NCBI GenBank assembly: GCA_025999395.1
Contig: AP024682.1
Location: forward strand, 237,638 to 301,637
Reading direction: 5' to 3'
Length of the DNA: 64,000 nt
DNA from: Candidatus Parcubacteria bacterium
GTDB lineage: Bacteria > Patescibacteriota > Minisyncoccia > UBA6257 > JAGOQP01
Positions 1 to 39,347 of the stretch are shown here, piece by piece; position 1 is the stretch's first letter, and each line of letters begins with the position of its first letter. The position numbers and the translations under genes are program-made. The notes under the pieces are model-generated. The model saw only the letters and a list, made by a program, of their open reading frames with translations. It did no database searches and had not been told where the DNA came from.

Positions 1-3000
1 GGGACACAAGATGTTGGAGTAAGTGTAAGCATCAAGAATTTTTCTGTTTCTGGTAGTAGTATCTCATTTACCGCCGAGGGTAATAGTTTTTACAAACTTC
101 ATTATTGTTCATTAACAACTGATGGAACAAAGCCTGTGAGTTTGAATGCGTATATTGATAACATTCTTAGAGCTAGTGTTACGGTTAATCCTCAATCATC
201 TACTGATCCAGATTATTCCTACGATTTTTCAATTTCAGGTATAGCCGAAGGATACCATATCTTAAAGGTCACCGCTAGTTCTAATGGAACAAATGATGAA
301 GCAAATCTTTCTTTTAATATACCAACGACCCCTCCTTCACCTCCCCCAGGGCAAGGAGGAAATCCTTCTCCGGGAACGGCTTATTTTGATCCAACGGCGG
401 TTGTAAATAATCAATCTTATTCTTTTCGTGTAGAAGGGGCACCTGCTAATACCACAGGTGATCTTTATAAGTCTCAGAAAGTTAATGGCGTTTGGCAAAA
501 TTGGCAAGTTAGTAATGATTGGATCGTAACTAATAGTAGTGGAAGTGCTACTAAAGGACCTTGGACATGTACCAGCGCCACAGCCGGTGAATTTAAAGTA
601 AAGATAAAGTGGGATGGTTATAATGATTTGGAAACACCCGAAGCTTATTTTAAATGTACTTACTATCCACCACCGACCGCTTTTGCATCTATTAGCCCAT
701 CGCAGATGGTTGTTGGAGGTGGAAATGTAAATTTTAATTGGGGCGGGGGGCCATTTTGTCAAGCGACTCTGAGTGCGGGAATTGGTATCAATGTTAGCGG
801 AGAGAGATCATTTTCGTTGCCTGTTATTTTTAACAGCGCGACTAACGATCCGGTAGACTATCGGCTTTCTGTTACTTGTCACAATGAAGTCGGTGAGATA
901 GCTCAAAGTAGCGCAAGCTTTAATGGTTTTTGGAGTTATGCTCACTGGTATGCTTTTAAGAAAAATAGCTGTGAAGCTGCTGATAATACAGCCCAAAGGG
1001 AAACAACTTTAGAAGGTAAGAATGGAGTTAGGTTCACTGCTAAAAGAGTTTATTCTGATAACGGGGATATTACCACTTGGCCCGATAGTTATCTAAATGA
1101 TGGTGACGATCGAGTTTGGTCGTATAATAATAATCACCAAGCTACTTACTCTGTTGATAGTGTAACACTAGTTCCTTCCGGTTATAAATACTGCAGTAAT
1201 AGTGGACCTGTGACTTTTTCTGATCCAACAGTGCCTAAAGAAGATACAATTAAATTATATTTCGCACCAAGTGTAGGTGGTGGACAACAATACACTCTCT
1301 CTGTATCTAAATCGGGTACAGGTAGCGGAACAGTTATCTCGAATCCATCAGGAATTAACTGTGGTGCTGATTGCACTGAGAGCTATAACTCTGGCACTCA
1401 AGTTACTCTCATAGCTAACCCTGATTCGGGTTCGAGTTTTATAGGTTGGAGCGGAGATTGTTCAGGAGTAGGAGATTGCATTTTAACGATAAATAACAAC
1501 AAATCAGTAACAGCCACTTTTAATACAAGTAGCATTACTGATCCGCCAAAATCAGCTCCTGATCTTTCCGGAGTAGCTGAGTGTCATATGAATTATCCTA
1601 CTTCATCGGTTCAGTCTTATCTTTCCTGGACAGAGGTGCCGGATGCCACAAGTTATGAGGTTTGGTGGGATAAACTCATTAATCAATTGTTAATAACTAC
1701 TTCCAATTTGTTTTATATCCATCGAGATCTAAATTCCGGTTCTTCATATTCTTATTTTGTTAATGGAAAAAACAGTGTTGGTAGTGGCCCTGATTCTAAT
1801 ACAGTAACCTTAACAATGCCATCTTCTTGTTCTAATCCCCCCCCACCTCCTCCGGGAGCTACTCCAACATTAGTGATTACTCCTAGTTCTCAAACAATTA
1901 GCGTAGGAGATAACGCTTCTTATATTGCCTTGTATGATCCCGATGGTACTCAAGATAGATATGGAGATTTTGATGTAACTCAGTTAGCTAATTGGTCATC
2001 GGATAATTCAACAATTGCTTCTTTACAAGGTAAGGGACTCTTTCGCGGAGAAAAAAGTGGCTCCACTCTTGTCCATGCTACCTATCAAGGGTTAACTGCC
2101 AATGCTTCTATTAGTGTTTTGGCAGAAAATGATTTTTCTCTTTCTATTACTCCAAATTTGAGAGAAGTTCAGAAACCCGGTCAAGCTCAATATACTGTTA
2201 CCGTTTCAAAGATAGGAAATTTCAGTGGGAATGTTACTCTTTCAGCACCAAAGCTTCCAGTGGGAGTAACAGCTAGTTTTTCTCCTCAAGTTGTTTTGGG
2301 AGGAAGTGGAACTTCTACTTTAACTCTTAATGTAAGCAATGATGCTTTAATAGGAAGATCAACTTTTGATGTAAAGGGAGTGAGTGGAAATCTATCTCAT
2401 CTTGCTCAAGCGGATATCAACATTACAGGTACACCTCCGCAGCTTTCCTGTACAGTTATTCCCAATCCGCAAAGTGGTCAAGCACCATTAACAACCACAG
2501 TTTCTGCTACTGGTTCTGGAGGAAGCGGTAATTATCGTTATCGTTTTGATTGGGAAAGTGATGGTACTTATGATACAGGATTTGTTACTTCTCCTAAGCA
2601 GCACACTTACACTAGTAATGGTACTTATCGAATCACCGTTGAGGTAAAAGATTTATCTGACAACAGTACTGCTACTTGCAATACAGGAGTAGCTTCTGGC
2701 TCGTGTCAAGGCTCAAGCTGTGATGTTTGTGTCGGTGATAACTGTGGAGGAAATCAGCCCTCGGTGGATTTGAAAGTTAATGGTAGTGACGGTCCCTTAA
2801 CCTTAGCTTATCTGCCGGGGAGTAACTTTGGAGCAACGATGGATGTAAACTGGCAGGCAAGCAATGTTTCTTCTTGTACTGCTTCAGCTTCTCCTGAGGT
2901 AACTGGCTGGAGCGGGGTTTTGCCTTCTTTGTCAGGGCAAGTTTCTGCTTATGCTTTTGATGTCAATCCCGATCCCAATCAGGGAACTAATTATCAACTT

Positions 3001-3351
3001 CAAATTACTTGTAATCCTACCGATTCGGTTTCGGTAAATGTAGTTAAGTGTGGCCCAGGATCAGAAAGTGTTCCTCAGTGTCAACAATTAGATGCTTGTT
3101 ATTTAACAGCAACTCCTTCCACGATTATTTCGGGCCAGTTTACAACCTTAGAGTGGGGCTGCACTAATCCTCAAGGAAAAACATGCACCATCGAGCAGGG
3201 AATTGGTGATGTTAGTCCAGAAGGAGGCACCAAGAGAGTCAATCCTCGTCAAACTACTACTTATACTCTTTCCTGCACCGGAGTAGATGATTCTTATGTA
3301 ACTGTAAGAGTTAGCTTCTTAAAGAAGATTAGGGAAATAATTCCTTGGTAG
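1..3351 (+). CDS. Giant extracellular multidomain protein, 5'-truncated by the window edge. Contains an InlB B-repeat-like module, an FN3-like module, a Big_2-like Ig module, a PKD-like module and C-terminal Cys-paired beta modules.
   Basis: Frame 1 has no stop from nt 1, so the gene continues upstream of the listed ATG at 136. The motif TLSVSKSGTGSGTVISNPSGINCGADCTESYNSGTQVTLIANPDSGSSFIGWSGDCSG matches the Listeria-Bacteroides InlB B-repeat. YRYRFDWESDGTYDTG...GTYRITVEVKD resembles a PKD domain. TLVITPSSQTISVGDNASY resembles Big_2. SWTEVPDATSYEVWW resembles FN3. The N-terminal part is paralogous to the middle of the 58475..60337 protein. Confidence 0.6.
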   Translation, partial: GTQDVGVSVSIKNFSVSGSSISFTAEGNSFYKLHYCSLTTDGTKPVSLNAYIDNILRASVTVNPQSSTDPDYSYDFSISGIAEGYHILKVTASSNGTNDEANLSFNIPTTPPSPPPGQGGNPSPGTAYFDPTAVVNNQSYSFRVEGAPANTTGDLYKSQKVNGVWQNWQVSNDWIVTNSSGSATKGPWTCTSATAGEFKVKIKWDGYNDLETPEAYFKCTYYPPPTAFASISPSQMVVGGGNVNFNWGGGPFCQATLSAGIGINVSGERSFSLPVIFNSATNDPVDYRLSVTCHNEVGEIAQSSASFNGFWSYAHWYAFKKNSCEAADNTAQRETTLEGKNGVRFTAKRVYSDNGDITTWPDSYLNDGDDRVWSYNNNHQATYSVDSVTLVPSGYKYCSNSGPVTFSDPTVPKEDTIKLYFAPSVGGGQQYTLSVSKSGTGSGTVISNPSGINCGADCTESYNSGTQVTLIANPDSGSSFIGWSGDCSGVGDCILTINNNKSVTATFNTSSITDPPKSAPDLSGVAECHMNYPTSSVQSYLSWTEVPDATSYEVWWDKLINQLLITTSNLFYIHRDLNSGSSYSYFVNGKNSVGSGPDSNTVTLTMPSSCSNPPPPPPGATPTLVITPSSQTISVGDNASYIALYDPDGTQDRYGDFDVTQLANWSSDNSTIASLQGKGLFRGEKSGSTLVHATYQGLTANASISVLAENDFSLSITPNLREVQKPGQAQYTVTVSKIGNFSGNVTLSAPKLPVGVTASFSPQVVLGGSGTSTLTLNVSNDALIGRSTFDVKGVSGNLSHLAQADINITGTPPQLSCTVIPNPQSGQAPLTTTVSATGSGGSGNYRYRFDWESDGTYDTGFVTSPKQHTYTSNGTYRITVEVKDLSDNSTATCNTGVASGSCQGSSCDVCVGDNCGGNQPSVDLKVNGSDGPLTLAYLPGSNFGATMDVNWQASNVSSCTASASPEVTGWSGVLPSLSGQVSAYAFDVNPDPNQGTNYQLQITCNPTDSVSVNVVKCGPGSESVPQCQQLDACYLTATPSTIISGQFTTLEWGCTNPQGKTCTIEQGIGDVSPEGGTKRVNPRQTTTYTLSCTGVDDSYVTVRVSFLKKIREIIPW

Positions 3352-17061: not shown

Positions 17062-18111
17062 TTGTTACTTTTATTTGCTGAAATTATGAAGTTAACAGAA
17101 TCTTTAAACCGCCTAATCAAAGAATTAAATGAGCGTCAAAGAGAAGTAATTGTCCACCGATTTGGGATCGAAACAGCTCCTAAAACTCTGGCTCAATTAG
17201 GAAAAAAATACAAAGTTACTCGAGAAAGAGTGCGTCAGATAGAAGCGATGGGGCTGAAGTCTTTAAGAAAAAAAGCTCAGGGAGACGACTCTTTGAAAAA
17301 ACATTTTGAAGTGTTGGTTAATTATTTGGAAGAGTTAGGGGGGGTGCGACGAGTTGACTTGTTAGCTAGCGATGCTCAATTGATCTTTAAAGATCCTAAA
17401 ATCTCTTCTTCTTATTTAGAGCTTCTTTTTGTTATTTTTGAAAAACCTCATCTTTTTTCTGAAAACAAGGATTTTTACTCTTTTTGGTACCTCTCTCCCA
17501 AACACTTAAAAAACAATCTTGATTTTGTTAAAAAACTTCTCAAGTTTTTAAAGGACAAAAAAGAAGAGGTTTTAGAGAAAAGGTTATTTGATTATCTTTT
17601 TTCCCAAGTGGTTAAAGAGCATTCTTTAAGCGATTTTGTGGCTTTGAATTTTATTCAAAATTCCAAGAGATTTGCTACTAATCCCTTTGGAGATTTTGGT
17701 TTGGCCGAATGGAGAGAAATTCTTCCCAAAACAGTGCGTGATAAGTCTTATTTAATTCTTAAGAAGAGAAAAACCCCCATGCACTTTAGAGAAATTGCTC
17801 AGGAGATTAACAAAATCGGGTTTGATCACCGTCGGGCTCATCCTCAAACAGTTCATAACGAACTAATCAAAGATCCGCGGTTTGTTCTGGTAGGAAGGGG
17901 GCTTTACTCTTTAAGGGAATTTGGAATTATTCCGGGAACCACCCGGGAGATTTTAAAGAAAATTTTAAAGACTCATGGTCCTTTGCCTTTGGAAAAAATT
18001 ATTGAATTAGTTTCTCAGCAAAGAGTAATCAAACACAATACAATTTTGCTTAACTTAGCTAATCGAAAGCATTTTAAGAAAACGGAAGACGGTTTATATC
18101 GAGTGGCTTAA
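17062..18111 (+). CDS. DNA-binding protein with an N-terminal sigma70 region-4-like HTH and a C-terminal HARE-HTH-like winged helix. The likely true start is ATG 17086.
   Basis: The N-terminus RQREVIVHRFGIETAPKTLAQLGKKYKVTRERVRQIEAMGLKSLRK closely matches sigma70 region 4.2. The C-terminus PMHFREIAQEINKIGFDHRRAHPQTVHNELIKDPRFVLVGRGLYSLREFG matches the HARE-HTH pattern (PMhxkEIaeeIlexg...tVsaaLskD.RFxrvgrGvYaLre). Confidence 0.5.
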   Translation: MLLLFAEIMKLTESLNRLIKELNERQREVIVHRFGIETAPKTLAQLGKKYKVTRERVRQIEAMGLKSLRKKAQGDDSLKKHFEVLVNYLEELGGVRRVDLLASDAQLIFKDPKISSSYLELLFVIFEKPHLFSENKDFYSFWYLSPKHLKNNLDFVKKLLKFLKDKKEEVLEKRLFDYLFSQVVKEHSLSDFVALNFIQNSKRFATNPFGDFGLAEWREILPKTVRDKSYLILKKRKTPMHFREIAQEINKIGFDHRRAHPQTVHNELIKDPRFVLVGRGLYSLREFGIIPGTTREILKKILKTHGPLPLEKIIELVSQQRVIKHNTILLNLANRKHFKKTEDGLYRVA

Positions 18112-18129
18112 AATTTGATATTGAGATAG

Positions 18130-18163
18130 AGAAGCCGCTTTTTTAAAGCGGCTCTTTTTATTT
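18130..18163 (+). terminator. Rho-independent terminator after the HTH gene.
   Basis: AGCCGCTTTTTTAAAGCGGCT hairpin followed by CTTTTTATTT. Confidence 0.5.
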
Positions 18164-18187
18164 AGCGCTTTTCATCTCTCGATTTTT

Positions 18188-19831
18188 GTGGTATTCTTTT
18201 TTAAATCAAAAAGAACTTTTATGAGCGAAAATTCAAAAGATATTATTTATCTAGCCAAAACCAATTTTCGCAATCAAGAGCGAATTTTTGGAATTAGGCG
18301 TCAAGATCGACGTCAGCACGTTTATATTATTGGAAAAACTGGAACCGGAAAGTCAGTTTTGCTGTCTAATATGATTTTACAAGATATTGCTAACGGGGAG
18401 GGAGTTTGTGTAATTGATCCTCATGGAGAGTTGGTGGAAGGAGTACTAAGAAATATTCCAAAATCTCGCAAAGAAGATGTTATTTATTTTAATCCCGCCG
18501 ACACTCAGTATCACATTGGTTTTAATGTTTTAGAAATTCCCGATCCTACTTATAAACATTTAGTAGCTTCGGGGCTGATGGGAATTTTTACTAAAATTTG
18601 GTCCAATGTTTGGTCAGCGCGAATGGAGTATATTTTAAATAATACTATTTTAGCTCTTTTGGATACGCCCGGCTCAACAATGTTAGGAATCAATCGAATT
18701 TTGGTTGACAGCGCTTATCGCCAACGAGTAATTGCCAATATCAAAGATCCAGTAGTAAAAGCTTTTTGGATCTATGAATTTGAGCAGTGGTCTAATCAAT
18801 TTCGTAACGAAGCTATTGCTCCAATTCAAAATAAGGTAGGGCAATTTCTTTCTACTTCAATTATTCGCAACATTGTGGGACAGTCAAAAAGTACGATTGA
18901 TTTTTTCAAGATTATGAATGAAGGAAAGATTCTTTTGGTGGATGTTTCTAAAGGAAAAATCGGAGAAGATAACTCGGCTCTTTTGGGGGCGATGATTATT
19001 ACCAAGCTTCAGCTTTCAGCGATGGAGAGAGTTAGAATTCCGGAGGAGAAAAGAAGAGATTTTTATCTTTATGTTGATGAATTTCAAAACTTTGCCACTG
19101 ATTCTTTTGCTAACATTCTTTCAGAAGCTAGAAAATACCGTCTCAATTTAACGGTGGCTCATCAGTATATTGGTCAATTAGTGGGTCCTTCCAATAACAC
19201 TAAAGTAAGAGACGCTGTTTTTGGTAATGTGGGGACGATGATTGTTTTTCGAATTGGAGCGGCGGATGCTGATTTTCTTAAGGAGGAAATGGCTCCGGAA
19301 TTTAGTCCTCAGGATATGGTCAATCTTCCTAATTATCACATTTATCTAAAACTGATGGTTCAAGGTGTGACTTCACGACCGTTTTCCGCAATTACTCTTC
19401 CGCCTTTGATTTTGAGGGAAGAAAAAGCCGAAGTAGAAGAAATTATTGAGGAGTCGCGTTTGCGCTATGCTCGTCCTCGGCAAGAGGTGGAAAAAGAAAT
19501 CGATGCTTGGAGTCAAGCAACCCTAGGCTTTTCTTTTCTTAAGCCTTCTTTAGAGGAATCTACTTCTATCACCGGCTTAAAAAGAAAAGAATGTGCTCTC
19601 TGTCAGAAAACGGTTTTGGTACCCGAGGACTTTTCTGAAAAAGATCCTTTTTACTGCCAAGAGTGCCTTGAAAGATTGAATTCAAAAAAGTCAGAAGAAA
19701 TATCGATTTCAGAGTTACCTGCATCTCAAAAAAGCGAAAGCCCTCCCTTAGCAGAAGCTGAAAAGAAAAAGAAAAAAAAGATAGATGTTGAGGGATTAAG
19801 GGAAGCTTTGCGGAAAGCTCTTTCTTCTTGA
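18188..19831 (+). CDS. HerA/TraG(VirD4)/FtsK-superfamily P-loop ATPase with a C-terminal CxxC...CxxC zinc ribbon. The likely true start is ATG 18221. No TM segment.
   Basis: Walker A IIGKTGTGKS. VIDPHGEL (the DPHGEY-type motif of DUF87/HerA). Walker B LYVDEFQNF. RKYRLNLTVAHQYIGQL (the Q...QL motif of coupling proteins). C-terminal CALCQ...CQEC. Confidence 0.55.
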   Translation: MVFFFKSKRTFMSENSKDIIYLAKTNFRNQERIFGIRRQDRRQHVYIIGKTGTGKSVLLSNMILQDIANGEGVCVIDPHGELVEGVLRNIPKSRKEDVIYFNPADTQYHIGFNVLEIPDPTYKHLVASGLMGIFTKIWSNVWSARMEYILNNTILALLDTPGSTMLGINRILVDSAYRQRVIANIKDPVVKAFWIYEFEQWSNQFRNEAIAPIQNKVGQFLSTSIIRNIVGQSKSTIDFFKIMNEGKILLVDVSKGKIGEDNSALLGAMIITKLQLSAMERVRIPEEKRRDFYLYVDEFQNFATDSFANILSEARKYRLNLTVAHQYIGQLVGPSNNTKVRDAVFGNVGTMIVFRIGAADADFLKEEMAPEFSPQDMVNLPNYHIYLKLMVQGVTSRPFSAITLPPLILREEKAEVEEIIEESRLRYARPRQEVEKEIDAWSQATLGFSFLKPSLEESTSITGLKRKECALCQKTVLVPEDFSEKDPFYCQECLERLNSKKSEEISISELPASQKSESPPLAEAEKKKKKKIDVEGLREALRKALSS

Positions 19832-19866
19832 TTTTAATTAACAAACAGGAAAATAATTAGATAATT

Positions 19867-21162
19867 ATGATTATATTAGAGGCTGGGCAATTAATTCTTA
19901 ATGGGTTGGAGTCTTTATGGTGGTTATTGGCATTAATAATTTTGGTACCTTTAGCTCACGAAAGCTGGCTGGCTTGGCGTCAAGAAATTTATAAATCAGC
20001 TGTTAAATATATCTTGCTTGAGATTCGAATCCCTCCTCAAGTGAAAAAAAGTCCCAAAGCAATGGAGCAGATTTTGGCTCAAATTCATTCTTTGGGAAAT
20101 TATCCGGGAAATCTTAAATCTTATAATTTAGAGGGGGAAGTAACTCTTTGGTTTTCTTTGGATGTAGTTAGTTTTGGAGGAGAGATTCATTTTTATTTAC
20201 GCCTTCCTCAAAAACATCAGGAAATTGTAGAAACCGCTTTCTTTTCTTATTATCCAGATTTGGAAATAGTGCCGGTGAAAGATTATTTGGAAGATCTTCC
20301 TCAAACCCTATTTGAAACTTATCAAAGAAACTTCGATTTTTGGGGAACTGAATTTGTTTTAGGAAAAGAAGATATCTACCCTTTGAAAACTTATCAAGAT
20401 TTTGAAGGAGGAACAGAAAAAGAATTTGATCCTATTTCTGTTTTGTTAGAAGTTTTAGCTAAAGTAAAGAAAAATGAGTTTGTAGCTCTTCAGTTTATCT
20501 GTCTTCCTTCGCCAGCAAAAGATTGGAAGGAAAGAGGGGAAAGGGTTATTCAAGAGCTAAAGGAAAAAAGCTCTCCGGCTCCAAAAGAATCTTTGGAAGG
20601 TCAGACTTCTCAAGTTAGCCCTCCGTCTAATTCCAAAGATTTAGAATTAGCTAAATTGATTGAAAAAAATATAGAGAAACCAGCTTTTAAGGTTTTAATT
20701 CGAGCTGGTTATTTTGGTTCGCGTGAGAATTTTAGCGAGGGTTTTGTAAAGAATGGGTTAAAAGGCGCTCTTAATCAATACAGTGGCCCGGAGATGAATT
20801 TTTTTAATAGTAATGGTCAAGTAGAAACTAAACCTCAACTCACCGGCTGGCCTTATCTTTTTCCTCGATTAAGAGTTTCTTGGCGCAAGCAAAGAATGCT
20901 TTTTAACTTTTCTAGATTTCTTATTCCTCCTCAAACCTTTATTGGAAAATTAGCTACCTCTCATCTTTTAAATAGCAATTTTAACTCTCAGATGTTTTAC
21001 TTAAACACTCAGGTTTTAGCTACTCTTTTTCATCCCCCCTTACATTTTGTCATCACTTCCCCCCACATTAAAGAGCTTCCTAGCCGAAAATTAGGAGCGC
21101 CTGCTGGCTTACCAATTTTTGGGGAAGAGGAAGAGAGATTAAAAAAATTTGAGATTAAGTAG
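19867..21162 (+). CDS. Hypothetical membrane-anchored protein (N-terminal TM), downstream partner of the ATPase.
   Basis: One N-terminal hydrophobic helix (LWWLLALIILVPLA). No recognisable domain. The intergenic gap is 35 nt. Confidence 0.4.
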   Translation: MIILEAGQLILNGLESLWWLLALIILVPLAHESWLAWRQEIYKSAVKYILLEIRIPPQVKKSPKAMEQILAQIHSLGNYPGNLKSYNLEGEVTLWFSLDVVSFGGEIHFYLRLPQKHQEIVETAFFSYYPDLEIVPVKDYLEDLPQTLFETYQRNFDFWGTEFVLGKEDIYPLKTYQDFEGGTEKEFDPISVLLEVLAKVKKNEFVALQFICLPSPAKDWKERGERVIQELKEKSSPAPKESLEGQTSQVSPPSNSKDLELAKLIEKNIEKPAFKVLIRAGYFGSRENFSEGFVKNGLKGALNQYSGPEMNFFNSNGQVETKPQLTGWPYLFPRLRVSWRKQRMLFNFSRFLIPPQTFIGKLATSHLLNSNFNSQMFYLNTQVLATLFHPPLHFVITSPHIKELPSRKLGAPAGLPIFGEEEERLKKFEIK

Positions 21163-21178
21163 TGAATAAGAAAAAAAT

Positions 21179-21691
21179 ATGGAAAATCTTTTCGGACCTT
21201 TTACTAAAATCTTTGAGGTAATTAAGATAGTAGTCATCGGTTTGGATGTTTTTCTACTTTTAATTTTTCTTTATGCTTTAAGAGGCTTAAGAAATTTTCG
21301 ACCTCATTTTTTTGATTGGGAGAAAAAATTTCAATCCTTGGAGACGGCTTTTAATAAAAATAATCCAACTCTTTCTTTTTCGGAAGAATGGCAAAAGGTT
21401 TTATTTCTTTTTCGAAAAGAGAAACCGGAAGCTTGGCGGCTGGCTTTATTGGCCGCTCATTCTTTAGGTGAGAGGGCTTTAGCTCAATTAGGATTAGCTA
21501 AAGAGAACTTTAAGCAATCACTTCTTTTTTTGGAAGAAAGGGGGTTAGAAAGTTTAAAGGAGGTGGAGAGGGCTTATAAGCTTTACAAGCAATTGTTGAC
21601 TTTGCCCTATTTTTCTCTTTCTCTAGAAGAAACAAAAGAAGCTCTTTTAGCTTATCATCTTTTTCTTAAAGAATTAGGCGTCTTAAAATAG
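21179..21691 (+). CDS. Hypothetical small membrane protein, third gene of the ATPase module.
   Basis: N-terminal TM (VIKIVVIGLDVFLLLIFLYAL) and a helical soluble part. A 16-nt gap separates it from the previous gene. Confidence 0.35.
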   Translation: MENLFGPFTKIFEVIKIVVIGLDVFLLLIFLYALRGLRNFRPHFFDWEKKFQSLETAFNKNNPTLSFSEEWQKVLFLFRKEKPEAWRLALLAAHSLGERALAQLGLAKENFKQSLLFLEERGLESLKEVERAYKLYKQLLTLPYFSLSLEETKEALLAYHLFLKELGVLK

Positions 21692-24932: not shown

Positions 24933-24960
24933 TTGATTCTTTTGGTTTTTTTGCTATGAT
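24933..24960 (+). promoter_or_regulatory. Sigma70-like promoter TTGATT-16-TATGAT. A GC hairpin plus T-run (25000-25027) follows it, ahead of the probable cobO start.
   Basis: TTGATT at 24933-24938, TATGAT at 24955-24960. CCCCCCGAAAGGGGGG followed by ATTTTTTTATTT at 25000-25027. Confidence 0.3.
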
Positions 24961-25048
24961 TTATCTGCCTCCTTTCCTTTCCTTCTCTTTGCCCTCCTTC
25001 CCCCCGAAAGGGGGGATTTTTTTATTTGGGTTTGATATAATCGATATA

Positions 25049-25579
25049 ATGATTGTTGTTTTTACAGGAAATGGAAAGGGGAAAACTACTGCTTGTTTGG
25101 GACAAATGATTCGAGCGCTAGGGCAGGGGAAAAGAGCGGCGATGTTTCAATTTATCAAAGGCCCCTGGATTTCAGGGGAACACAAATTTGTCGATCTTCT
25201 TTCTTCTTCATTGAAAAAAAATTTTTTAATCTATCGAGGAGGAAAGGGTTTTGTTGGAATTTTAGGTGATAAACTTCCTTTTCGGGTTCATCAAAGAGCC
25301 GCTCTTTTAACTTTAAAAAAGGTTCAGCAGGCAATTCAATCAAAAAAATGGGATTTGGTAGTTTTGGATGAAGTAAATGTAGCGGTTTCTTTGAAACTTT
25401 TGAAAGCAAGGGATGTTTTAAGAGTAATTTCTCAAGCTTCTCCTCAAAAAGTCATTATTCTTTCAGGAAGAAACGCTCCTTTAAGTTTTATTAGAAGGGC
25501 AGATTTGGTAACAGAAATGAAGGAAATAAAACATCCTTATCAAAAAGGAAAAAAGGCGCAGGTTGGTTTTGAATTTTAG
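25049..25579 (+). CDS. cobO: Cob(I)alamin/cob(I)yrinic acid a,c-diamide adenosyltransferase (CobO/BtuR type). The ORF track extends the frame back to 24956, but the conserved core begins at ATG 25049.
   Basis: IVVFTGNGKGKTTACLGQ P-loop and AAMFQFIKG match the CobA/CobO family. The upstream 31 codons of the listed ORF are Pro/Phe-rich with no homology and overlap a terminator-like hairpin. Confidence 0.65.
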   Translation: MIVVFTGNGKGKTTACLGQMIRALGQGKRAAMFQFIKGPWISGEHKFVDLLSSSLKKNFLIYRGGKGFVGILGDKLPFRVHQRAALLTLKKVQQAIQSKKWDLVVLDEVNVAVSLKLLKARDVLRVISQASPQKVIILSGRNAPLSFIRRADLVTEMKEIKHPYQKGKKAQVGFEF

Positions 25580-25626: not shown

Positions 25627-27081
25627 TTGGCTATGAGCTTGGAAAAAAGAGCTTTTTTCTTTTTTCTCTTCTTTTTAGTAGGTCTTTTTTTATCTTCTTT
25701 AAATTTAAAAACTTTTTATTTGATAGGAGGAGAGCTTTTTTTCTTTTTGGTGCTTTTGTTTTGGGGTGTTTTAAAATCAGATAAGTTTTTTCTTTCTTTG
25801 GCCTTTCTTTCTCTTTTTCTTTTAATGGGTTGGGGATGGGGGAAAGTTTTTAATTTCTTTTATTTTTCTCAGTCATCTTTGGAGTACAACAAAGTCACTC
25901 TTTTGGAAGGGAAAATTTCTTCTTATCCTAAGGTCAATCAGGGTTCGATTAACTTTCTTTTAAAAACCTCTCAAAAGGAGGTGGTTTTTGTTTCCTTGCC
26001 ACCTTTTTATTCTTTTGGTTGGGGGGATTTTCTTAAGATAAGAGGTAAAATTCAAAGATTAGAGGAAAACAATCGTTTTTTAATGAAGGATAAGGTCAAA
26101 GGGGTAGTTTTTTCTCCTGAAGTTTTAGAGCATAAAAGAAACCCTCTTTTTTCCTTAAAAAGGGAGCTTTTTTATTTGAGAGAAAAGTTGTCTGAGGTTT
26201 TTAGAAAAGTTTTTCCTCAAGATGAAGCGGCTTTGGCAACGGGTTTGCTTTTAGGTCAAGAAAGTGCTGGCTTTTCTTCTTCTTTTAAGGAATTTTTAAG
26301 AAAAAGTGGTACCAGTCATTTAGTTGCTTTATCGGGCTACAATGTTTTGATTTTAATTAATGCTATGCATTTGTTTTTAGGTTTCTTTTTTAAAAGAAAA
26401 ACTAATTTTTTCTTGTCTCTTTTTGTTATTTTTCTTTTTGTTTTAATGACGGGCGCAGAAGCTTCGCTGGTGAGAGCATCTTTAATGGGGGGATTGATTC
26501 TTCTAGCTGAAAATTTAAGCCGAATTCCCAATTTTTTAAATTTAACTCTTTTTTCTGCTTGGATAATGGCTCTTTTTAACCCGAAGATATTTTTTGATGT
26601 TGGTTTTCTCCTTTCTTTTTTGGCTTTTTTGGGAATTAGTTATGGAGGTTCTTCTTTAGATATTTTATTTTCTTTTAAAAGCTCTTTTTGGGATCGAGTC
26701 AAGAAAATATTTTTTGAAACTTTTTCTGCTCAAGTTGCTGTTTTACCGATTTTAGTAATTTACTTTGGAAATTTTTCTTGGATGGGTTTTGTTTCTAATA
26801 TTTTTCTTCTCCCACTTATTCCTTTAACAATGTTTCTTAGTTTTTTGGTGGGAGGGGGAGGAATTATTTCTCTGGCTTTAGCTAAAATGATTTCTCTTTT
26901 GCTTTGGCCTTTAATTAGGTTAGAAGTTGATTTAATAAAATTTTTTGGCTCCTTTACAACTTTTTCTTTTTCAGCTAAAGGGTGGGTGTTTTTTGTTTAT
27001 TATTTAATTCTTTTTTGCTTGGGAAGATGGATTTTTAAAAAGGCTAATGAAGAAAAATTAAAACTCGGCTTAATTTTATGA
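25627..27081 (+). CDS. comEC: ComEC/Rec2 DNA-uptake channel, membrane competence domain.
   Basis: LATGLLLGQESAGFSSSFKEFLRKSGTSHLVALSGYNVLIL competence-domain signature. About 10 TM helices. Confidence 0.75.
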   Translation: MAMSLEKRAFFFFLFFLVGLFLSSLNLKTFYLIGGELFFFLVLLFWGVLKSDKFFLSLAFLSLFLLMGWGWGKVFNFFYFSQSSLEYNKVTLLEGKISSYPKVNQGSINFLLKTSQKEVVFVSLPPFYSFGWGDFLKIRGKIQRLEENNRFLMKDKVKGVVFSPEVLEHKRNPLFSLKRELFYLREKLSEVFRKVFPQDEAALATGLLLGQESAGFSSSFKEFLRKSGTSHLVALSGYNVLILINAMHLFLGFFFKRKTNFFLSLFVIFLFVLMTGAEASLVRASLMGGLILLAENLSRIPNFLNLTLFSAWIMALFNPKIFFDVGFLLSFLAFLGISYGGSSLDILFSFKSSFWDRVKKIFFETFSAQVAVLPILVIYFGNFSWMGFVSNIFLLPLIPLTMFLSFLVGGGGIISLALAKMISLLLWPLIRLEVDLIKFFGSFTTFSFSAKGWVFFVYYLILFCLGRWIFKKANEEKLKLGLIL

Positions 27082-27929
27082 AAAAGAAATTTTTTATTTT
27101 TGGTTTAGGAGCTCTTCTTTTCTTTAATATCTTAGCTTGGCGGCTGGTTTTTGAAGGTAATAAAAATGAGGTAGCCGCTTACTTTCTTGATGTTGGTCAA
27201 GGAGATAGCCAGTTAATTAAGATTAATCAAGCTAATTTTTTAATTGATGCTGGAAGAAACGATTTGGTTTTAAAGAATCTTGAAAGAATTCTCCCTTTTT
27301 ACCAAAAGAGAATTGATGTTCTTTTTATTTCTCATCCTCAAGAGGATCATGTTAAAGGCATTTTTTCTTTGGTAAGGAATTATGAAATTGGAGCAGTTAT
27401 TTTTAATGGACAGGAAATAAGTTTCTGGCCAAAGTTAGCTTCACTTTTTAAGGCTAACAATATTCCTTTTTTTGCTTTAACAAAGGGTGATGAGGTTGTT
27501 TTTGGAAAAAATTACTTTCAGATTCTTTGGCCAGAGACTAATTTTGGAGGTAAGCTTGATGAAAATGACGCTTCTTTAGTAGTAGCCTTTAGAAGTAATT
27601 ATTTTTCTGCTCTTTTTTTAGGAGATATTTCATCTAAGGTGGAAAAGATTCTTCTAAACTCGTTTGATTTTTCCAAAATCAAAGTTGATGTTTTAAAGGT
27701 AGCTCATCATGGATCGAAATATTCCTCGGATTTTAATTTTTTGAAAGCGGTGTCTCCTAAAGTAGCGGTAATAGAGGTAGGAAAAAATTCTTACGGCCAT
27801 CCCACTTCTGAGGTTTTAGAAAGACTAGCTAATTTAAAGATAGAAGTTTTTAGAACCGATAAGGATGGAATAGTTAAAATTTTTAGTGAGAATAATCTAT
27901 TGAAAGTAGCAAAATCTCTCTCAAATTGA
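27078..27929 (+). CDS. comEC: ComEC C-terminal metallo-beta-lactamase domain as a separate ORF. It overlaps the previous ORF by ATGA.
   Basis: FLDVGQGDSQLIKI, ISHPQEDHVKG (HxHxDH-like) and VAHHGS. It has an N-terminal TM of its own. Confidence 0.7.
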   Translation: MKKKFFIFGLGALLFFNILAWRLVFEGNKNEVAAYFLDVGQGDSQLIKINQANFLIDAGRNDLVLKNLERILPFYQKRIDVLFISHPQEDHVKGIFSLVRNYEIGAVIFNGQEISFWPKLASLFKANNIPFFALTKGDEVVFGKNYFQILWPETNFGGKLDENDASLVVAFRSNYFSALFLGDISSKVEKILLNSFDFSKIKVDVLKVAHHGSKYSSDFNFLKAVSPKVAVIEVGKNSYGHPTSEVLERLANLKIEVFRTDKDGIVKIFSENNLLKVAKSLSN

Positions 27930-32577: not shown

Positions 32578-34251
32578 TTGTTTAAAGTTAGAAAAATAAA
32601 AAATTGGAATATGGAGGAGATACTTTTTGAAAAACCGATCTTAAGTGAAGAAGAAAGATATTTAATTGAACCTTTTTTTACTAATCTTGATAGATCTGTT
32701 TATGGAGTAACCTTTTTACCCCCGGAAATTGTGGGAGCACTAAGTTCAAGGGCGAGTCGAACCAAAGATGATTTAAGAGTGGTTTTTTTAAATGAATTTA
32801 TTAAGCCTTTTCTTGAAACAGATTATGGAAATTCTTTTCAAGAATTTGCTCACTTTTTGCATCAAAACTCCTTTGAAAAGATTTTCGCCAACCCCAAAGC
32901 TAGAGAATTTTATTTTAAATGGCTTTCGGAGTATGGCGATGACTCAATTGCTCAAATGGCGGGAACTCATCTGGTTTTTTCTTCCCTTTCTCAGTTAGCG
33001 ATAAAACATTTTGAAAACCAAAGAATTGGATTGGCGCCGATTGAAAAATCAACCAGATATGTTGATTTTTCAAGAAAAATTAATAATTCTTATCGCTATT
33101 TTACTCCTCCGGAAATTGAAAAATTTGGCCTCAAACAAGATTATAAAAAAACCTTAGATTTTCTTTTTGAAACTTATTCTTTTCTTTCTCAAAGTTATTT
33201 AGATTTTTTAAAAAATAAGTTTCCTAATGAAAAGGAATTGGTTTTAAAGACAAAAGCTTTTGATGTGGCAAGACTTATTTTACCGGTGGCCACTCTTGGT
33301 CAAGTAGCTTTTTTTGGTAATGGCCAAGCTTTTGAATATCTCATTAGTCGCTCTTTGGAAAGTAACTTAGAAGAAGTGAGATGGGCCGCTCAAAGAGCCT
33401 ACGAGGAACTTTTTAAGGTTATTCCGGCTTTTTTGAGACGACTGGATAAAGAAGAAAGCAAGAGCTACAGAAAATATTTGGGAGAAAGAAAAAGCAGAGT
33501 CAAAGAGGTTTTCAAAGAAATACCTTTTCCTTCAGAAGAAAAAATTTTCCAAGAGGATTCGAAGGTGAGATTACTTGAATATGATCCTTTGGGAGAAGAT
33601 AAAGTAATTGCCGGAATTCTTTATTCTGAAAGCGGGATGAATTTTTCTCAACTTTTAGAAAAAGTAAAGAAACTAACTCTTGAGCAAAAGGAAAGAGTTT
33701 TGGCAAAGATTCTTTCTGACAGAAAATTTCGTTGGTATAAAGTTCCTCGAGCTTTTGAAAATGTTTATTTGCGTTTTGAAATAGAGACAAATATTGGCGC
33801 TTGGCGAGATTTACAAAGGCATCGAATGCAAACTCAACAACACCAAAGGTTTACTATTTCTAATGGTTTTGATGTCCCTCAAGAACTTCGAGAGGCAAGA
33901 TTAGAAAATTCTTTTTTGGAAGCAATAAAAGAAGCGGAAAATCTTTTTGAAAAAGTAAGAAAAATTGATGAAGAAGTGGCTCAATACGTGGTTAGCTTTG
34001 CTCACCGAGTAAGATTTATTCAATATCAAAACTTAAGGCAGTTTTTCTGGGAAACAGAGTTGCGAACCACTCCTCAGGGCCATCCAGATTATAGAAAGGT
34101 TGAGCAAGAGAAGGTAAAACTTGTTCAAAAAATTTATCCTTTAATTTCTAAATATCTTTTGGTTTCTTTTGAAGATTACGATCTTCCTCGTCGCCAAACA
34201 CCAGAAGAAATTCTTAAGCGAGAAAAAGAGTTGAAAGAGGGGAGTGCTTAA
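32578..34251 (+). CDS. thyX: Probable long-form flavin-dependent thymidylate synthase ThyX.
   Basis: RHRMQTQQHQRF aligns with the ThyX signature RHR(x)nSQQSQRY. The catalytic-type domain is in the C-terminal half, as in the 500+ aa ThyX forms. Confidence 0.45.
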   Translation: MFKVRKIKNWNMEEILFEKPILSEEERYLIEPFFTNLDRSVYGVTFLPPEIVGALSSRASRTKDDLRVVFLNEFIKPFLETDYGNSFQEFAHFLHQNSFEKIFANPKAREFYFKWLSEYGDDSIAQMAGTHLVFSSLSQLAIKHFENQRIGLAPIEKSTRYVDFSRKINNSYRYFTPPEIEKFGLKQDYKKTLDFLFETYSFLSQSYLDFLKNKFPNEKELVLKTKAFDVARLILPVATLGQVAFFGNGQAFEYLISRSLESNLEEVRWAAQRAYEELFKVIPAFLRRLDKEESKSYRKYLGERKSRVKEVFKEIPFPSEEKIFQEDSKVRLLEYDPLGEDKVIAGILYSESGMNFSQLLEKVKKLTLEQKERVLAKILSDRKFRWYKVPRAFENVYLRFEIETNIGAWRDLQRHRMQTQQHQRFTISNGFDVPQELREARLENSFLEAIKEAENLFEKVRKIDEEVAQYVVSFAHRVRFIQYQNLRQFFWETELRTTPQGHPDYRKVEQEKVKLVQKIYPLISKYLLVSFEDYDLPRRQTPEEILKREKELKEGSA

Positions 34252-37209: not shown

Positions 37210-39347
37210 ATGAGATATCCTTTAGAAAAATATAGAAATATAGGAATCATTGCTCATATCGATGCTGGAAAAACCACCGTTTCAGAACGGATTCTTTTTT
37301 ATACTGGTATTTCTCACAAAATCGGGGAGGTGCATGAGGGGCAGGCAATTATGGACTGGATGGAGCAGGAAAGAGAAAGGGGGATTACTATTACCTCAGC
37401 TGCCACTACTTGTTTTTGGACACCAATCCGCGAAGTTTTGAAAGTTTCCAGTGACGAAGAAAAAACTAAATTAAGAAAGGAAAGGGAACATCGAATTAAT
37501 ATTATTGATACTCCGGGCCACGTAGATTTTACAGTTGAAGTGGAGCGTTCTCTTAGAGTGTTAGATGGAGGAGTGGTGGTTTTTGATGGGGTGGCGGGAG
37601 TTGAACCTCAATCGGAAACAGTTTGGCGTCAGGCGGATAAGTATAAGGTGCCTCGCATTTGTTTTATTAACAAAATGGACAGAATGGGAGCCAGTTTTGA
37701 AAATTCCTTTAGATCAATTTTGGAAAGATTAACTCCTCACGCTGTAGCGGTTCAACTTCCTATTGGAGCGGAAGAAAATTTTGAAGGAGTGGTTGATCTT
37801 TTGGAAAAGAAAGCTTTTATCTTTAAAGGAGAACACGGAGAAATAATTGAAGAAATTCCCATTCCTCAATCGATGATAGATGAAGTAGAAGAAAAAAGAG
37901 CCTTTTTAATTGAAAAAATTGTTGAAAAAGATGAAGAATTGATGAATCGTTACTTAGAAGGTCAGGAAATTAAAGTTGAAGAATTAAGAAGAGTTTTAAG
38001 AAAGGCAACGATTGAAAGTGAATTAGTGCCTGTTTTCTGTGGTTCAGCTTTAAGAAATAAGGGGGTTCAGTTTCTTTTGGATGGAGTGATTGATTATCTT
38101 CCTTCTCCTTTGGATATTAATCATCTCAAACCAATTAAAGGAACTCATCCTAAAACTGGAGAAGAAATTGTTCGTCAACCTACGGATAATGAACCTTTAA
38201 CTGCTTTGGCTTTTAAAATTGCTTCCGATCCGTTTGTGGGAAACCTTACTTACTTTAGAATTTATAGCGGTGTTCTTAAAAAAGGTACTTACATTCTCAA
38301 CTCTACCAAGAATTTTCAAGAAAGAGTCGGAAGGATCGTTCGAATGCACGCTAATCATCGAGAAGATGTTGAAGAAATGTATGCAGGGGATTGGGAGCAA
38401 TTGTGGGGCTAAAAGGAACTACTACCGGTGACACTCTTTGTGATCCTCAAAATCCGATTGTTCTTGAGGGAATTACTTTCCGAGAACCAGTGATTAATCT
38501 TAAAATCGAGCCCAAAACCAAAGCTGATCAAGAAAAACTAGGCTTGGCTTTAAGACGCTTAGCAGATGAGGATCCCACCTTTCGGGTTACTGGTGATCCG
38601 GAAACTGGGGAAACGATTATTTGGGGAATGGGAGAGTTACATTTAGAAATTTTAGTTGATCGAATGAGGAGAGAATTTGGAGTGGAAGCTAATGTTGGTC
38701 GCCCCCGTGTTTCTTATAAGGAAACAATTCGCTCGACCGCTGAAGCTGAGGGGAAATATATTCGCCAGTCTGGAGGTCGAGGTCAGTATGGTCATGTAAA
38801 GATTAAAATTAGGCCTCTAGAAAGAGGGAAAGGTTTTGTTTTTATCGATCAAATTAAGGGAGGAATTATTCCTCAGGAATTTATTCCGGCAGTAGAGAAG
38901 GGAGTAAGAGAAGCAATGGACAAAGGAATCATTGCCGGCTATCCTGTTACCGATGTTGAAGTAACTCTCTTTGATGGTTCTTATCACGAAGTCGATTCTT
39001 CGGAAGCAGCTTTTAAAATTGCTGGCTCGATCGCTTTTCAGGAAGCGGCTAAACAGGCTGATCCAGTGATTTTGGAGCCAATCATGAAGGTTCAGGTAAT
39101 CGTTCCTCAGGAATTTGTAGGAGATGTGACGGGTGATTTGAGCGCTAAAAGAGGCAGAATCGAAGCTTTATCTGATCGGGCAATGATGAAGGTAGTTGAT
39201 GCTAAGGTTCCCTTGTCAGAAATGTTTGGATATGTTACTAATTTAAGATCGATGACTCAAGGAAGAGGAACTTTTACCATGGAGTTTTCTCACTATGAAG
39301 AAGTTCCTAAAAATATTGAGCAATTGATTATTGAAGGGAAAAAATAA
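37210..39347 (+). CDS. fusA: Elongation factor G, split by an apparent -1 frameshift at about 38391 into ORFs 37210..38412 and 38391..39347.
   Basis: G domain [13 protein letters not shown]. The join EEMYAGD|[18 protein letters not shown] matches the EF-G consensus YAGDIAAAIGLKDTxTGDTLCD only if one T is added (GATTGGG to GATTTGGG). Confidence 0.8.

Follow-up and report, generated by a model that had tools for sequence, protein, structure and literature searches.

The ultra-small Patescibacteria (CPR) represent much of the diversity of bacteria and live in dependence on host cells. The window analyzed here, a 64-kb stretch of a Parcubacteria/Paceibacteria MAG, holds a block of four genes (g1 to g4), all on the + strand and flanked by secDF and efp, in which a soluble ATPase was originally predicted to work with separate membrane proteins. 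Which known family does this ATPase belong to, who are its partners, and what would it move? We addressed these questions through the domain identities, folds, topology, synteny and fusion of the module.

Organization of the four-gene locus

The four ORFs re-derived from the sequence have the coordinates given in the original prediction, with gaps of 35 nt between g2 and g3 and 16 nt between g3 and g4, and its placement of the block was also confirmed, secD/secF lying 5′ and efp 3′ of it (Table 1). The database protein matching g2 (P0001) has 536 aa, in line with the probable start of this gene. Between g1 and g2, a putative terminator was identified with a 9-bp stem containing five GC pairs and followed by a T-run. 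Because this strong terminator-like hairpin separates the two genes, g1 is probably transcribed apart from g2–g4 in this window.

Table 1 Features of the four-gene locus (positions in the window).
Feature	Position (nt)	Residues (aa)	Strand	Remark
g1	17062-18111	349	+	probable start ATG 17086
g1 Sigma-70 region 4 HTH	17116-17271		+	Pfam, NCBIfam
g1 HARE-HTH	17731-17922		+	Pfam, NCBIfam; further conserved C-terminal segment after
Terminator-like hairpin and T-run, g1/g2 intergenic	18133..18163 (hairpin 18133-18153)		+	consensus scan, pattern match
g2	18188-19831	547	+	probable start ATG 18221
g2 Walker A GKTGTGKS	18332-18355	49-56	+	motif reading
g2 DPHGE	18416-18430	77-81	+	motif reading
g2 Walker B YLYVDEFQNF	19064-19093	293-302	+	motif reading
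g2 SEARKY	19121-19138		+	motif reading
g2 AHQYIGQL	19157-19180	324-331	+	motif reading
g2 C-terminal treble-clef zinc ribbon CxxC-x17-CxxC	19592..19666	469-493	+	motif reading, homologue alignment
g2 low-complexity Lys-rich linker after zinc ribbon, KKKKKK	19763-19780		+	
g2 conserved terminal helix	19787-19828		+	
g3	19867-21162	431	+	
g3 TM helix, N-terminal, single	19915-19959		+	hydropathy
g4	21179-21691	170	+	
g4 TM helix, N-terminal, single	21221-21280		+	hydropathy; cytoplasmic helical domain after

A predicted soluble coupling-type ATPase and its candidate membrane anchor

Pfam searches with g2, a check proposed in the original prediction, matched TrwB_AAD_bind (7e-15, aa 39–357), T4SS-DNA_transf, DUF87 and TraG-D_C, and all the motifs named there (GKTGTGKS, DPHGE, DEFQNF and Q...QL) were located. 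The Walker A and B motifs are intact in a RecA-like nucleotide-binding domain of the FtsK-HerA superfamily, into which an all-alpha domain is inserted as in coupling proteins; in the AF2 model this helical insert spans residues 109–272, between Walker A and Walker B. No TM or hydrophobic segment was found in g2 by the hydropathy scan (maximum KD19 = 1.21), as predicted, and an N-terminal TM anchor is absent from the g2 polypeptide itself, the anchor being on the separate gene g3. The predicted C-terminal zinc ribbon is present, but its CxxC pairs are separated by 17 residues and not by 19. Its four Cys are invariant in the homologue alignment, and g2 homologues carry PF23477 (zf_Tbcl_2). Pfam and structure matches thus bear out the soluble TraG/VirD4/HerA-superfamily motor with a zinc ribbon.

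Judged from its sequence, g2 belongs to the VirD4/VirB4 clade of P-loop ATPases as a soluble member of the hexameric-motor "ATPase-A" type, and is assigned to the type IV coupling protein (T4CP) lineage of monoderm conjugative elements. Its HMM profile is nearer to T4CPs than to VirB4, and its scores stay far below the curated NCBIfam cut-offs (SXT_TraD, 59 vs 366 bits; CD1115, 38 vs 250). Homologues form more than 8000 clusters at 63–72% identity, and the median identity of 67% is above that of SecD and EF-P. FtsK/SpoIIIE was rejected as an identity of g2, which lacks the combination of FtsK alpha, beta and gamma domains with a 4-TM N-terminus. Membership in VirB4 (CagE/TrbE/TraC) was likewise rejected: there is no sequence-level match to VirB4 models (TIGR00929, 16 bits vs a cut-off of 643).

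The two genes after the ATPase were originally described as N-terminally anchored membrane proteins with no known domains. One N-terminal TM helix was indeed found in each of g3 and g4, but g3 is not domain-free. It is bitopic, with a cytoplasmic domain of ~385 aa whose fold is that of the VirB4/TrwK N-terminal domain and which has no P-loop. Homologues of g3, including the 97%-identical P0121, carry Pfam PF26449 (DUF8128); the assignment to g3 comes from precomputed labels of P0121, of 120/120 homologues listed and of the g3 orthologue in L091, a locus nearly identical to this one. With the DUF8128 profile, 2584 representative clusters were matched; like the many g2 homologues, they show that the genes are real. 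No mention of DUF8128 was found in the literature searched. The structure matches of g3 and g2 fall on one and the same chain, 7o42_A, g3 on the VirB4 N-terminal domain and g2 on the C-terminal domain. In TrwK, residues 15–400 mediate the pairing of VirB4 subunits at their dimer interface and are contacted by VirB3 and by the VirB8 tails (PMC9259494). We predict that g3 is the N-terminal domain of the T4CP lineage, split off as a gene of its own.

Conservation of the gene cluster across CPR

Gene order was compared in 80 species-representative genomes, with counts given per locus scorable. g1 lies before g3 in 69/73 loci, directly 5′ of DUF8128, and g4 after g3 in 77/79 with a median gap of 3 nt; a paralogous ATPase (ATPase-B), not found in this window, follows 3′ of g4 in 65/71. 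The window has g2 and then g3, the two parts on adjacent genes. More distant CPR lineages have the order secDF–g1–DUF8128–ATPase, with DUF8128 and the ATPase −4 to +4 nt apart in five of these distant loci, and g4 is absent from the distant DUF8128 loci. The neighborhood check proposed in the original prediction therefore came out in its favor: the block is co-conserved in related and distant CPR loci and is not a set of unrelated housekeeping genes. This conservation is not due to chance, and throughout a whole class the cluster keeps one fixed position in the core genome.

Experimental phenotypes for such genes come from Southlakia epibionticum alone. Its g1 orthologue, SEML1_0294 (349 aa, Sigma70_r4 and HARE-HTH), is essential by Tn-seq (Wang et al. 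2023) and has four ECOD domain assignments, one tri-helical and three winged. Directly after it lies SEML1_0293, a 921-aa T4CP-like ATPase whose 360-aa N-terminal region is presumably the fused g3 equivalent. Both proteins are in core, Patescibacteria-enriched families, and downstream of the pair are a GNAT acetyltransferase and no annotated g4-like protein. SEML1_0293 is non-essential, with Tn-seq reads falling about four-fold, and a second T4CP-like gene, SEML1_0142, is essential. The T4SS genes of S. epibionticum are essential as well, and their locus has no coupling protein (PMC10633639).

An ATPase of a known family with VirB genes elsewhere would count against the original prediction. 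The latter has to be revised in part, since the ATPases are orphan T4CP homologues that were already counted (PMC12102498). That survey reported 5,713 T4CP homologues in 2,918 of 3,035 CPR genomes, about two "orphan" homologues in almost every genome and only 148 near virB4, and placed CPR VirB4 within the monoderm MPF-FATA class (PMC12102498).

A conserved neighbor with sigma region 4 and HARE-HTH

The predicted sigma70-r4/HARE-HTH architecture of g1 was reproduced with Pfam (Sigma70_r4, E 3e-14; HARE-HTH, E 1e-11). By its domains g1 would be a cytoplasmic protein of the DNA-binding type, and it has no TM segment. Region 4 alone is present: sigma region 2 was not found with Pfam, NCBIfam or the PDB search, and the PDB matches are confined to region 4. 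With region 2 missing and all NCBIfam sigma models far below their cut-offs, g1 was rejected as a sigma-70 family sigma factor; it was also rejected as the RNA polymerase delta subunit (RpoE) of low-GC Gram-positives (TIGR04567, 35.1 bits vs a cut-off of 42).

We consider it about an even chance that g1 stands outside the machine, as an essential CPR-specific transcription or RNA-polymerase-associated factor that is merely an old neighbor of secDF and DUF8128 in gene order. The terminator-like hairpin and the median gap of 73 nt between g1 and g3, against 3 nt between g3 and g4, point in this direction, as do the essentiality of SEML1_0294 next to a non-essential downstream SEML1_0293 and the conservation of the secF–g1 adjacency, which equals that of g1–g3. 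Sigma region 4 and HARE-HTH are, moreover, both known modules of RNA-polymerase-associated proteins. However, the adjacency of g1 to DUF8128 or the ATPase persists from Paceibacteria to distant lineages and Saccharimonadia while the downstream genes vary, and at some junctions the genes overlap or are spaced by 3 to 11 nt. Collectively, g1 is probably a separately transcribed neighbor with an essential role of its own.

Fused relatives and comparison with known systems

In the Bacillus sp. F19 plasmid CP085711.1 (USK36540.1, 869 aa) and in an ORF of Priestia megaterium pFDU301A, a g3-type domain is followed by a g2-type ATPase in one polypeptide (DUF8128 HMM, E 3.5e-15 and 9e-26; g2-type ATPase, E 2e-31), fused and not split as in g3/g2. 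Walker A, DPHGD and Walker B motifs are present in the Bacillaceae ATPase, which unlike g2 has no zinc ribbon; no hydrophobic N-terminal segment was seen by eye in the F19 protein. These genes are plasmid-borne, beside PriCT primase, Replic_Relax (relaxase-like) and TcpC, and no g1 or g4 homologue was found among their neighbors by annotation or Pfam. The combination of a DUF8128 domain with this ATPase subfamily, which marks the fused monoderm T4CP, is present in g3 and g2 in split form.

Among plasmid records, the closest non-CPR relative in a T4SS locus is the T4CP of Embleya sp. (812 aa; 33% identity to g2, E 7e-60), encoded in the order PrgI–VirB4–T4CP–Replic_Relax–NlpC/P60. This protein and that of Haladaptatus (1193 aa), both monoderm/archaeal T4CPs of the MPF-FATA type, share T4SS-DNA_transf, TrwB_AAD_bind and TraG-D_C with g2. 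They differ in being single polypeptides next to a VirB4-like gene, with PrgI, Replic_Relax and a cell-wall hydrolase added in Embleya; the ATPase comes after ~400 residues, and a TM helix stands at the start of the Embleya protein. TrwB carries its own anchor in the form of two N-terminal TM helices. Compared with TrwB, VirD4 and DotL of diderm T4SSs, g2 has no TM helices of its own, its anchor is a separate protein and it adds the zinc ribbon.

A precedent for a g3-like split is TrsD, which in CPR is a stand-alone protein, encoded beside an ATPase and remotely homologous to the N-terminal part of VirB4 (PMC12102498). The TrsD–VirB4 pair differs in location: the module lies beside secDF and not in a T4SS cluster, which is near dnaA and dnaN in most CPR classes (PMC12102498). 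Matches to EccE+EccC (type VII), HerA-NurA, DptH and the archaeal Ced ATPases are much weaker or limited to the P-loop core, and the partners that define these systems (EccB/C/D, NurA, Dnd proteins and CedA) are all absent.

A split T4CP as the tentative reading

Since the Bacillaceae plasmid proteins fuse DUF8128 and this ATPase beside relaxase-like and TcpC genes, we tentatively read g3 and g2, at slightly below even odds, as a split T4CP of the monoderm conjugative-element kind that became fixed in the core chromosome of Patescibacteria and may be linked to the CPR T4SS. The original proposal that g3 and g4 are partners of the ATPase is supported, and we infer a physical g3–g2 complex, its substrate and its tie to a T4SS encoded elsewhere. 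g3 would serve as the membrane anchor through its one TM helix and VirB4 N-terminal-domain fold, oligomerize on the cytoplasmic side of the membrane and dock a hexamer of g2, the soluble RecA-like motor with all-alpha insert and zinc-ribbon tail. The hexamer would spend ATP to engage a polymer and push it towards a membrane conduit encoded elsewhere. The polymer would most likely be DNA or nucleoprotein, because the ancestry of the family is conjugative, and the most likely conduit would be the patescibacterial VirB4-type T4SS, whose own locus lacks a coupling protein. g4 may be a class-specific accessory subunit, and g1 an ancient neighbor that binds DNA or RNA polymerase.

For the orphan T4CPs of Patescibacteria, the analysis defines a place in the genome and a set of partners: a DUF8128 anchor, a small bitopic protein and a sigma-r4/HARE-HTH neighbor with an essential orthologue in the only relative that is genetically tractable. 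The fusions found on plasmids connect the module to monoderm conjugation machinery and suggest a way for a soluble coupling ATPase to dock, either at the membrane or onto a T4SS. In Saccharibacteria, Tn-seq already distinguishes the two ATPase paralogues by phenotype.

Some observations count against the split T4CP or its T4SS link. No virB4, virB6, pilin or relaxase gene lies within the 64-kb window, and the 148 homologues near virB4 are few among 5,713. The T4SS genes of S. epibionticum are essential and SEML1_0293 is not. DUF8128 similarity is marginal in the N-terminal region of the actinobacterial T4CP (22.7 bits) and absent in the haloarchaeal one. The g2 model is of low confidence at residues 317–387, and the window lacks ATPase-B and an intact g4 motif.

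It is possible, though rather less probable, that the split T4CP, g4, the second ATPase and the treble-clef zinc-finger proteins of relatives were exapted as a T4SS-independent, membrane-associated translocase or remodeling motor for a CPR-specific core process. Exaptation was raised by the authors of the survey, in which the homologues are rarely near virB4 and occur in 96% of genomes, vs 80% for VirB4 (PMC12102498); the very strong conservation of g2, the fixed core position beside secDF and an essentiality of SEML1_0293 unlike that of T4SS genes fit as well. The 96% and 80%, however, would be expected from two gene copies vs one in incomplete MAGs, and the closest non-CPR relatives reside in conjugative T4SS loci. 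With just one TM helix in g3 and one in g4, and hardly any extracellular portion in either, the module encodes no obvious conduit. We regard as unlikely a bolder form, in which a minimal translocation machine found CPR-wide works autonomously, without the VirB4 T4SS, and preserves an architecture intermediate between VirB4 and VirD4. In it, the motor of the split T4CP would have been duplicated into two active ATPases in Paceibacteria and coupled to the essential sigma-r4/HARE-HTH protein, serving a core, possibly essential episymbiotic step such as DNA or protein transfer between symbiont and host.

A DNA-uptake motor that pulls incoming DNA through ComEC, like ComFA in Firmicutes competence, is improbable. 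Descent from DNA translocases, the zinc ribbon and the Lys-rich tail would suit it, and in nine listed loci, eight of them independent, comEC is located downstream of ATPase-A at a distance of 0.6–3.3 kb; in the window it is 5.8 kb downstream of g2. Since the interval holds the housekeeping genes trmD, efp, mnmA and murC, this proximity appears to reflect the conserved gene order of a compact genome; furthermore, comEC insertions in S. epibionticum cause no read loss, in contrast to the phenotypes of SEML1_0293 and SEML1_0142.

The originally suggested anti-phage module of the HerA, MADS or DptH type is very improbable: the proposed comparison with defence-system HMMs (PADLOC) gave generic P-loop core or sigma-r4 similarity alone, no nuclease, Sir2, DUF4297, methyltransferase or Dnd partner was present in the loci examined, so that a HerA-NurA or HerA-type system was rejected, the same locus lies between housekeeping genes in 80 species representatives, where inheritance looks vertical, the GC content of the window is uniform, and the high identity of g2 is unlike that of fast-turnover defence genes. 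Equally remote is export of the giant surface proteins of the window, also suggested originally, or a remnant of an integrated conjugative element; despite the conjugative ancestry and the large PKD and InlB-repeat genes (136-3351, 58475-60337 and 60368-62419), the latter lie unlinked 14 kb and 37 kb from the module, related loci have no large repeat proteins beside it among Pfam-annotated genes save one PKD-like gene (L003), the cluster in the window has neither an integrase or relaxase gene nor a flanking tRNA or a shift in composition, and the position is fixed across the whole class.

A degenerate family motif in g4

The g4 family carries a near-invariant motif, WRAHRxRNxLVHTPGF (Rx4H), and four g4 orthologues gave no Pfam match. 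The motif may correspond to the Rx4-6H of the four-helix HEPN domain; the PDB profile search with g4 returned a marginal RPB5 match alone (E 0.04). By eye, RNxxxH within the motif is kept in most of 79 orthologues; the window copy is degenerate (ERAYKLYKQLLTLPYF, nt 21566-21613) and reads YKQLLT instead. With ATPase-B missing and the g4 family motif lost, the module may be reduced in this lineage.

Genomic setting and protein domains of the cluster

ORF calling recovered the four forward-strand genes, g1 to g4, exactly where the original prediction had placed them, with the same gaps of 35 nt (g2-g3) and 16 nt (g3-g4); the likely start codons are ATG 17086 for g1 and ATG 18221 for g2. The flanks on both sides consist of housekeeping genes, as had been claimed: pth, lepB, hisS, ybeY, ftsA, ftsZ, class II RNR, VKOR, secD and secF upstream, efp, murC, mnmA, a CobA-like gene, comEC and a metallo-beta-lactamase (MBL) gene downstream, and a class II aminoacyl-tRNA synthetase (D/K/N type) and ndk further downstream. 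The GC content is low throughout the window (about 0.30-0.42), a terminator-like hairpin with a T-run was found between g1 and g2 by pattern matching, and an Rfam scan of the window returned tRNA-Pro alone.

The g1 protein combines sigma-70 region 4 (E 3e-14) with a HARE-HTH domain (E 1e-11) in Pfam, and its two HTH regions are strongly conserved across 71 orthologues. Sigma region 2 was absent in Pfam, NCBIfam and PDB searches, and g1 is therefore not a sigma factor. No paper in the literature searched pairs HARE-HTH with Patescibacteria.

The g2 ATPase matches TrwB_AAD_bind, T4SS-DNA_transf, DUF87 and TraG-D_C in Pfam. Its Walker A and B motifs are intact and a TM segment is absent, as anticipated; the expected zinc ribbon is also present, with a spacing of 17 residues rather than 19. 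The AF2 model (mean pLDDT 72) is mostly confident at about residues 40-310 and poor at 317-387, and contains a helical insert at residues 109-272. A role for g2 as an FtsK replacement was rejected, since Southlakia epibionticum has a true FtsK (SEML1_0096) that is essential by Tn-seq (PMC10633639) and the structural similarity to FtsK is low. The literature searched contained no paper on DUF87 in the 'Candidate Phyla Radiation' (CPR, the Patescibacteria).

Both membrane proteins had been described as lacking known domains, which fails for g3. This protein has no match in the Pfam (local copy), NCBIfam or PADLOC libraries, and its homologues carry PF26449 (DUF8128), a family without mention in the literature searched. 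The confident AF2 model of g3 (pLDDT 84, pTM 0.81) consists of one long N-terminal helix holding the TM segment, followed by an alpha/beta domain. TrwK chains make up all top 11 Foldseek matches of this model, and a sequence-profile search of g3 against the PDB gave nothing significant. The corresponding domain of R388 TrwK (residues 15-400) forms the VirB4 dimer interface and binds VirB3 as well as the tails of VirB8 (PMC9259494). In g4, a TM helix is combined with a helical domain, and the soluble domains of g3 and g4 are both predicted to be cytoplasmic by the positive-inside rule.

A word-indexed homologue search with g4 found one protein only, 96% identical, and a marginal PDB profile match to the RPB5 N-terminus (E 0.04) was not trusted. 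In an alignment (A2) of the window copy and 79 other orthologues, the block WRAHRxRNxLVHTPGF is near-invariant and, judged by eye, appears to fit the HEPN Rx4H pattern. The motif has been lost from the window copy and from a few of the remaining 79. A link between this loss and the absence of the paralogous ATPase-B was considered and dropped, the strict motif being present in five of six loci without ATPase-B and RNxxxH in the sixth.

Coordinates of features in the window and in compared loci
Feature	Location	Remark
g1	17062-18111 (+)	Sigma70_r4, HARE-HTH
g2	18188-19831 (+)	ATPase-A
g3	19867-21162 (+)	DUF8128
g4	21179-21691 (+)
g4 motif region	21566-21613	motif lost
CobA/BtuR homologue	24956-25579	E 1e-50
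ComEC	25627-27081	Competence/DUF4131 membrane protein
MBL gene	27078-27929	overlaps ComEC gene
ThyX (Thy1) ORF	32578-34251	557 aa; domain at residues 344-521
EF-G part 1	37210-38412	GTPase domain, domain 2
EF-G part 2	38391-39347	domains III, IV, C
Putative large surface proteins	136-3351; 58475-60337; 40612-41895 (-)
Surface-type ORF	60368-62419	683 aa; no family match
Rod-shape genes	43439-44452; 49460-50500; 50527-51213; 51692-53608
Tandem ~560-600-aa proteins	L001 9529-13407; L003 1-5957; L006 13265-15010; L068 14185-21308; L004 9398-11170	relatives
ECF-type sigma factor	L097 12533-13228	Priestia megaterium pFDU301A
Stand-alone g2 homologue	L098 8001-9188	Sulfitobacter mediterraneus NZ_CP081110.1

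Conservation of the cluster across Patescibacteria

Scanning the g3 alignment against one genome per species yielded 80 loci, all from Patescibacteria, in which gene order was established by ORF calling and phmmer; counts refer to loci with room for the gene concerned. The genes are co-conserved in the usual order secD-secF-g1-g3-g4-ATPase-B: g1 lies upstream of g3 in 69 of 73 loci (median gap 73 nt), g4 follows g3 in 77 of 79 (3 nt), ATPase-B follows g4 in 65 of 71 (10 nt), and secF is found upstream in 56 of 68. The order of the window, with ATPase-A between g1 and g3, recurs only in L006 and in L091 and L092, two near-identical relatives.

ATPase-A, the g2 orthologue, has about 600 aa and the zinc ribbon, and in relatives is usually encoded further downstream or at another place in the genome. 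ATPase-B is a paralogue of about 480 aa, about 46% identical to g2 and without the zinc ribbon; a search within the window did not find it. Both retain the full set of catalytic motifs. In the same genomes, the median identity of ATPase-A (67%) exceeds that of SecD (55%), EF-P (54.5%) and SecF (53%).

The DUF8128 profile matched 2,584 representative clusters. Among more distant members, the order (secDF-)g1-DUF8128-ATPase occurs in five of six loci, with DUF8128-ATPase junctions of -4 to +4 nt and without g4, and the ATPase has a zinc ribbon in the loci whose contig reaches its C-terminus (L087, L094). Conservation therefore extends deepest for the unit of g1 with DUF8128 and a zinc-ribbon ATPase, the set present in the window; g4 and ATPase-B were apparently added in Paceibacteria.

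In relatives, ATPase-B or comEC has one to five paralogous proteins in tandem beside it. Their matches to the treble-clef zinc-finger families zf_Tbcl and zf_Tbcl_2 are weak and below the gathering cut-off, zf_Tbcl_2 being the domain family at the C-terminus of ATPase-A homologues, and they might serve the ATPases as adaptors or be their substrates. No such protein, including the treble-clef zinc-finger proteins of about 580 aa adjacent to ATPase-B, was found within the window.

Relationship to conjugative coupling proteins

When g3 was searched against plasmids by tblastn, two Bacillaceae records matched. In Priestia megaterium pFDU301A, a single ORF combines DUF8128 (96 bits, E 9e-26) with the beginning of the ATPase, and the fused form was found in 18 Bacillaceae plasmids, in contrast to the split into g3 and g2 in the window. 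On pFDU301A, the decayed fused gene is followed at a distance of about 1 kb by an ECF-type sigma factor gene (Sigma70_r2 and r4_2), which may echo the sigma-r4 neighbour in CPR or be a coincidence.

Streptomyces, Bacillus, Staphylococcus, Clostridium, haloarchaea and Sulfolobus account for most of the 312 plasmid matches of g2. The homologue in Embleya (33% identity, E 7e-60) is the type IV coupling protein (T4CP) of a PrgI-VirB4-T4CP-Replic_Relax-NlpC/P60 locus; unlike g2, it has a TM helix and some 400 residues ahead of the ATPase in the same polypeptide. Comparison of DUF8128 with single Embleya and Haladaptatus proteins by hhalign gave low probabilities, and with a broader HMM the DUF8128 similarity of the Embleya T4CP was marginal only. 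Slightly more similar to g2 (39% identity, E 5e-92) is a stand-alone, soluble 395-aa homologue of its core on an alphaproteobacterial plasmid, that of Sulfitobacter mediterraneus; its neighbours are a DUF3768 gene and transposases, and genes for DUF8128 or a T4SS are absent from the vicinity. Taken together, g3 and g2 represent a monoderm-type T4CP divided between two genes.

Possible function of the module

The present data establish which domains the proteins contain, their folds and topology, the deep synteny and the gene fusion. Beyond these, g3 would tether the soluble motor at the cytoplasmic face of the membrane, and the motor may act on a polymer, probably DNA or nucleoprotein, most likely in the service of a CPR T4SS encoded elsewhere; we favour this reading tentatively, at somewhat under even odds. 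Quinonero-Coronel et al. (2025) reported that 2,918 of 3,035 Patescibacteria genomes together carry 5,713 T4CP homologues, of which only 148 are near virB4, and assigned the VirB4 of CPR to the monoderm MPF-FATA class (PMC12102498). The essential T4SS locus of S. epibionticum described by Wang et al. (2023) has no recognisable coupling protein (PMC10633639). Exaptation of the CPR homologues was kept possible by the former authors (PMC12102498), and the main rival, an exapted machine independent of any T4SS, is in our judgement rather unlikely.

Tn-seq results from S. epibionticum (PMC10633639) bear on the individual genes. SEML1_0294, the g1 orthologue (349 aa, Sigma70_r4 and HARE-HTH), is essential; the 921-aa T4CP-like gene directly downstream, SEML1_0293 (P-loop domain from residue 361), is non-essential, with reads declining from 5817 through 2940 to 1372. 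Another T4CP-like gene, SEML1_0142 (1019 aa), is essential. The chances are roughly balanced that g1 is an independent essential factor merely sharing an old gene order, which is compatible with the other readings.

A DNA-uptake motor linked to ComEC seems improbable. The recurrent presence of comEC near the module speaks for it; trmD, efp and mnmA intervene, and the proximity was therefore downgraded to conserved gene order. The comEC gene of S. epibionticum, SEML1_0777, is dispensable without read loss (PMC10633639). In the window, ComEC and a metallo-beta-lactamase are encoded by separate, overlapping genes, an arrangement common to L004 and L091.

Two functions suggested in the original prediction are very unlikely: for a defence module, the PADLOC matches (mad8, HerA, MzaA) were judged to reflect generic domain similarity, and for export of surface proteins, the surface genes are unlinked to the module in related loci with annotated genes. 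A mobile-element remnant is likewise very unlikely.

Other features of the window

The putative large surface proteins carry InlB B-repeat, PKD or PEGA domains. Elongation factor G is encoded by two overlapping ORFs, and a one-T deletion within a T-run was read around 38385-38395; the split of this essential gene probably reflects a frameshift error of assembly or sequencing. The ThyX domain is preceded by about 340 N-terminal residues without a family match. A homologue of CobA/BtuR (ATP:corrinoid adenosyltransferase) lies amid translation and competence genes and is unexpected with minimal metabolism. Two MreB paralogues, MreC and a PBP2-type transpeptidase amount to a complete rod-shape set, encoded by a very small genome.
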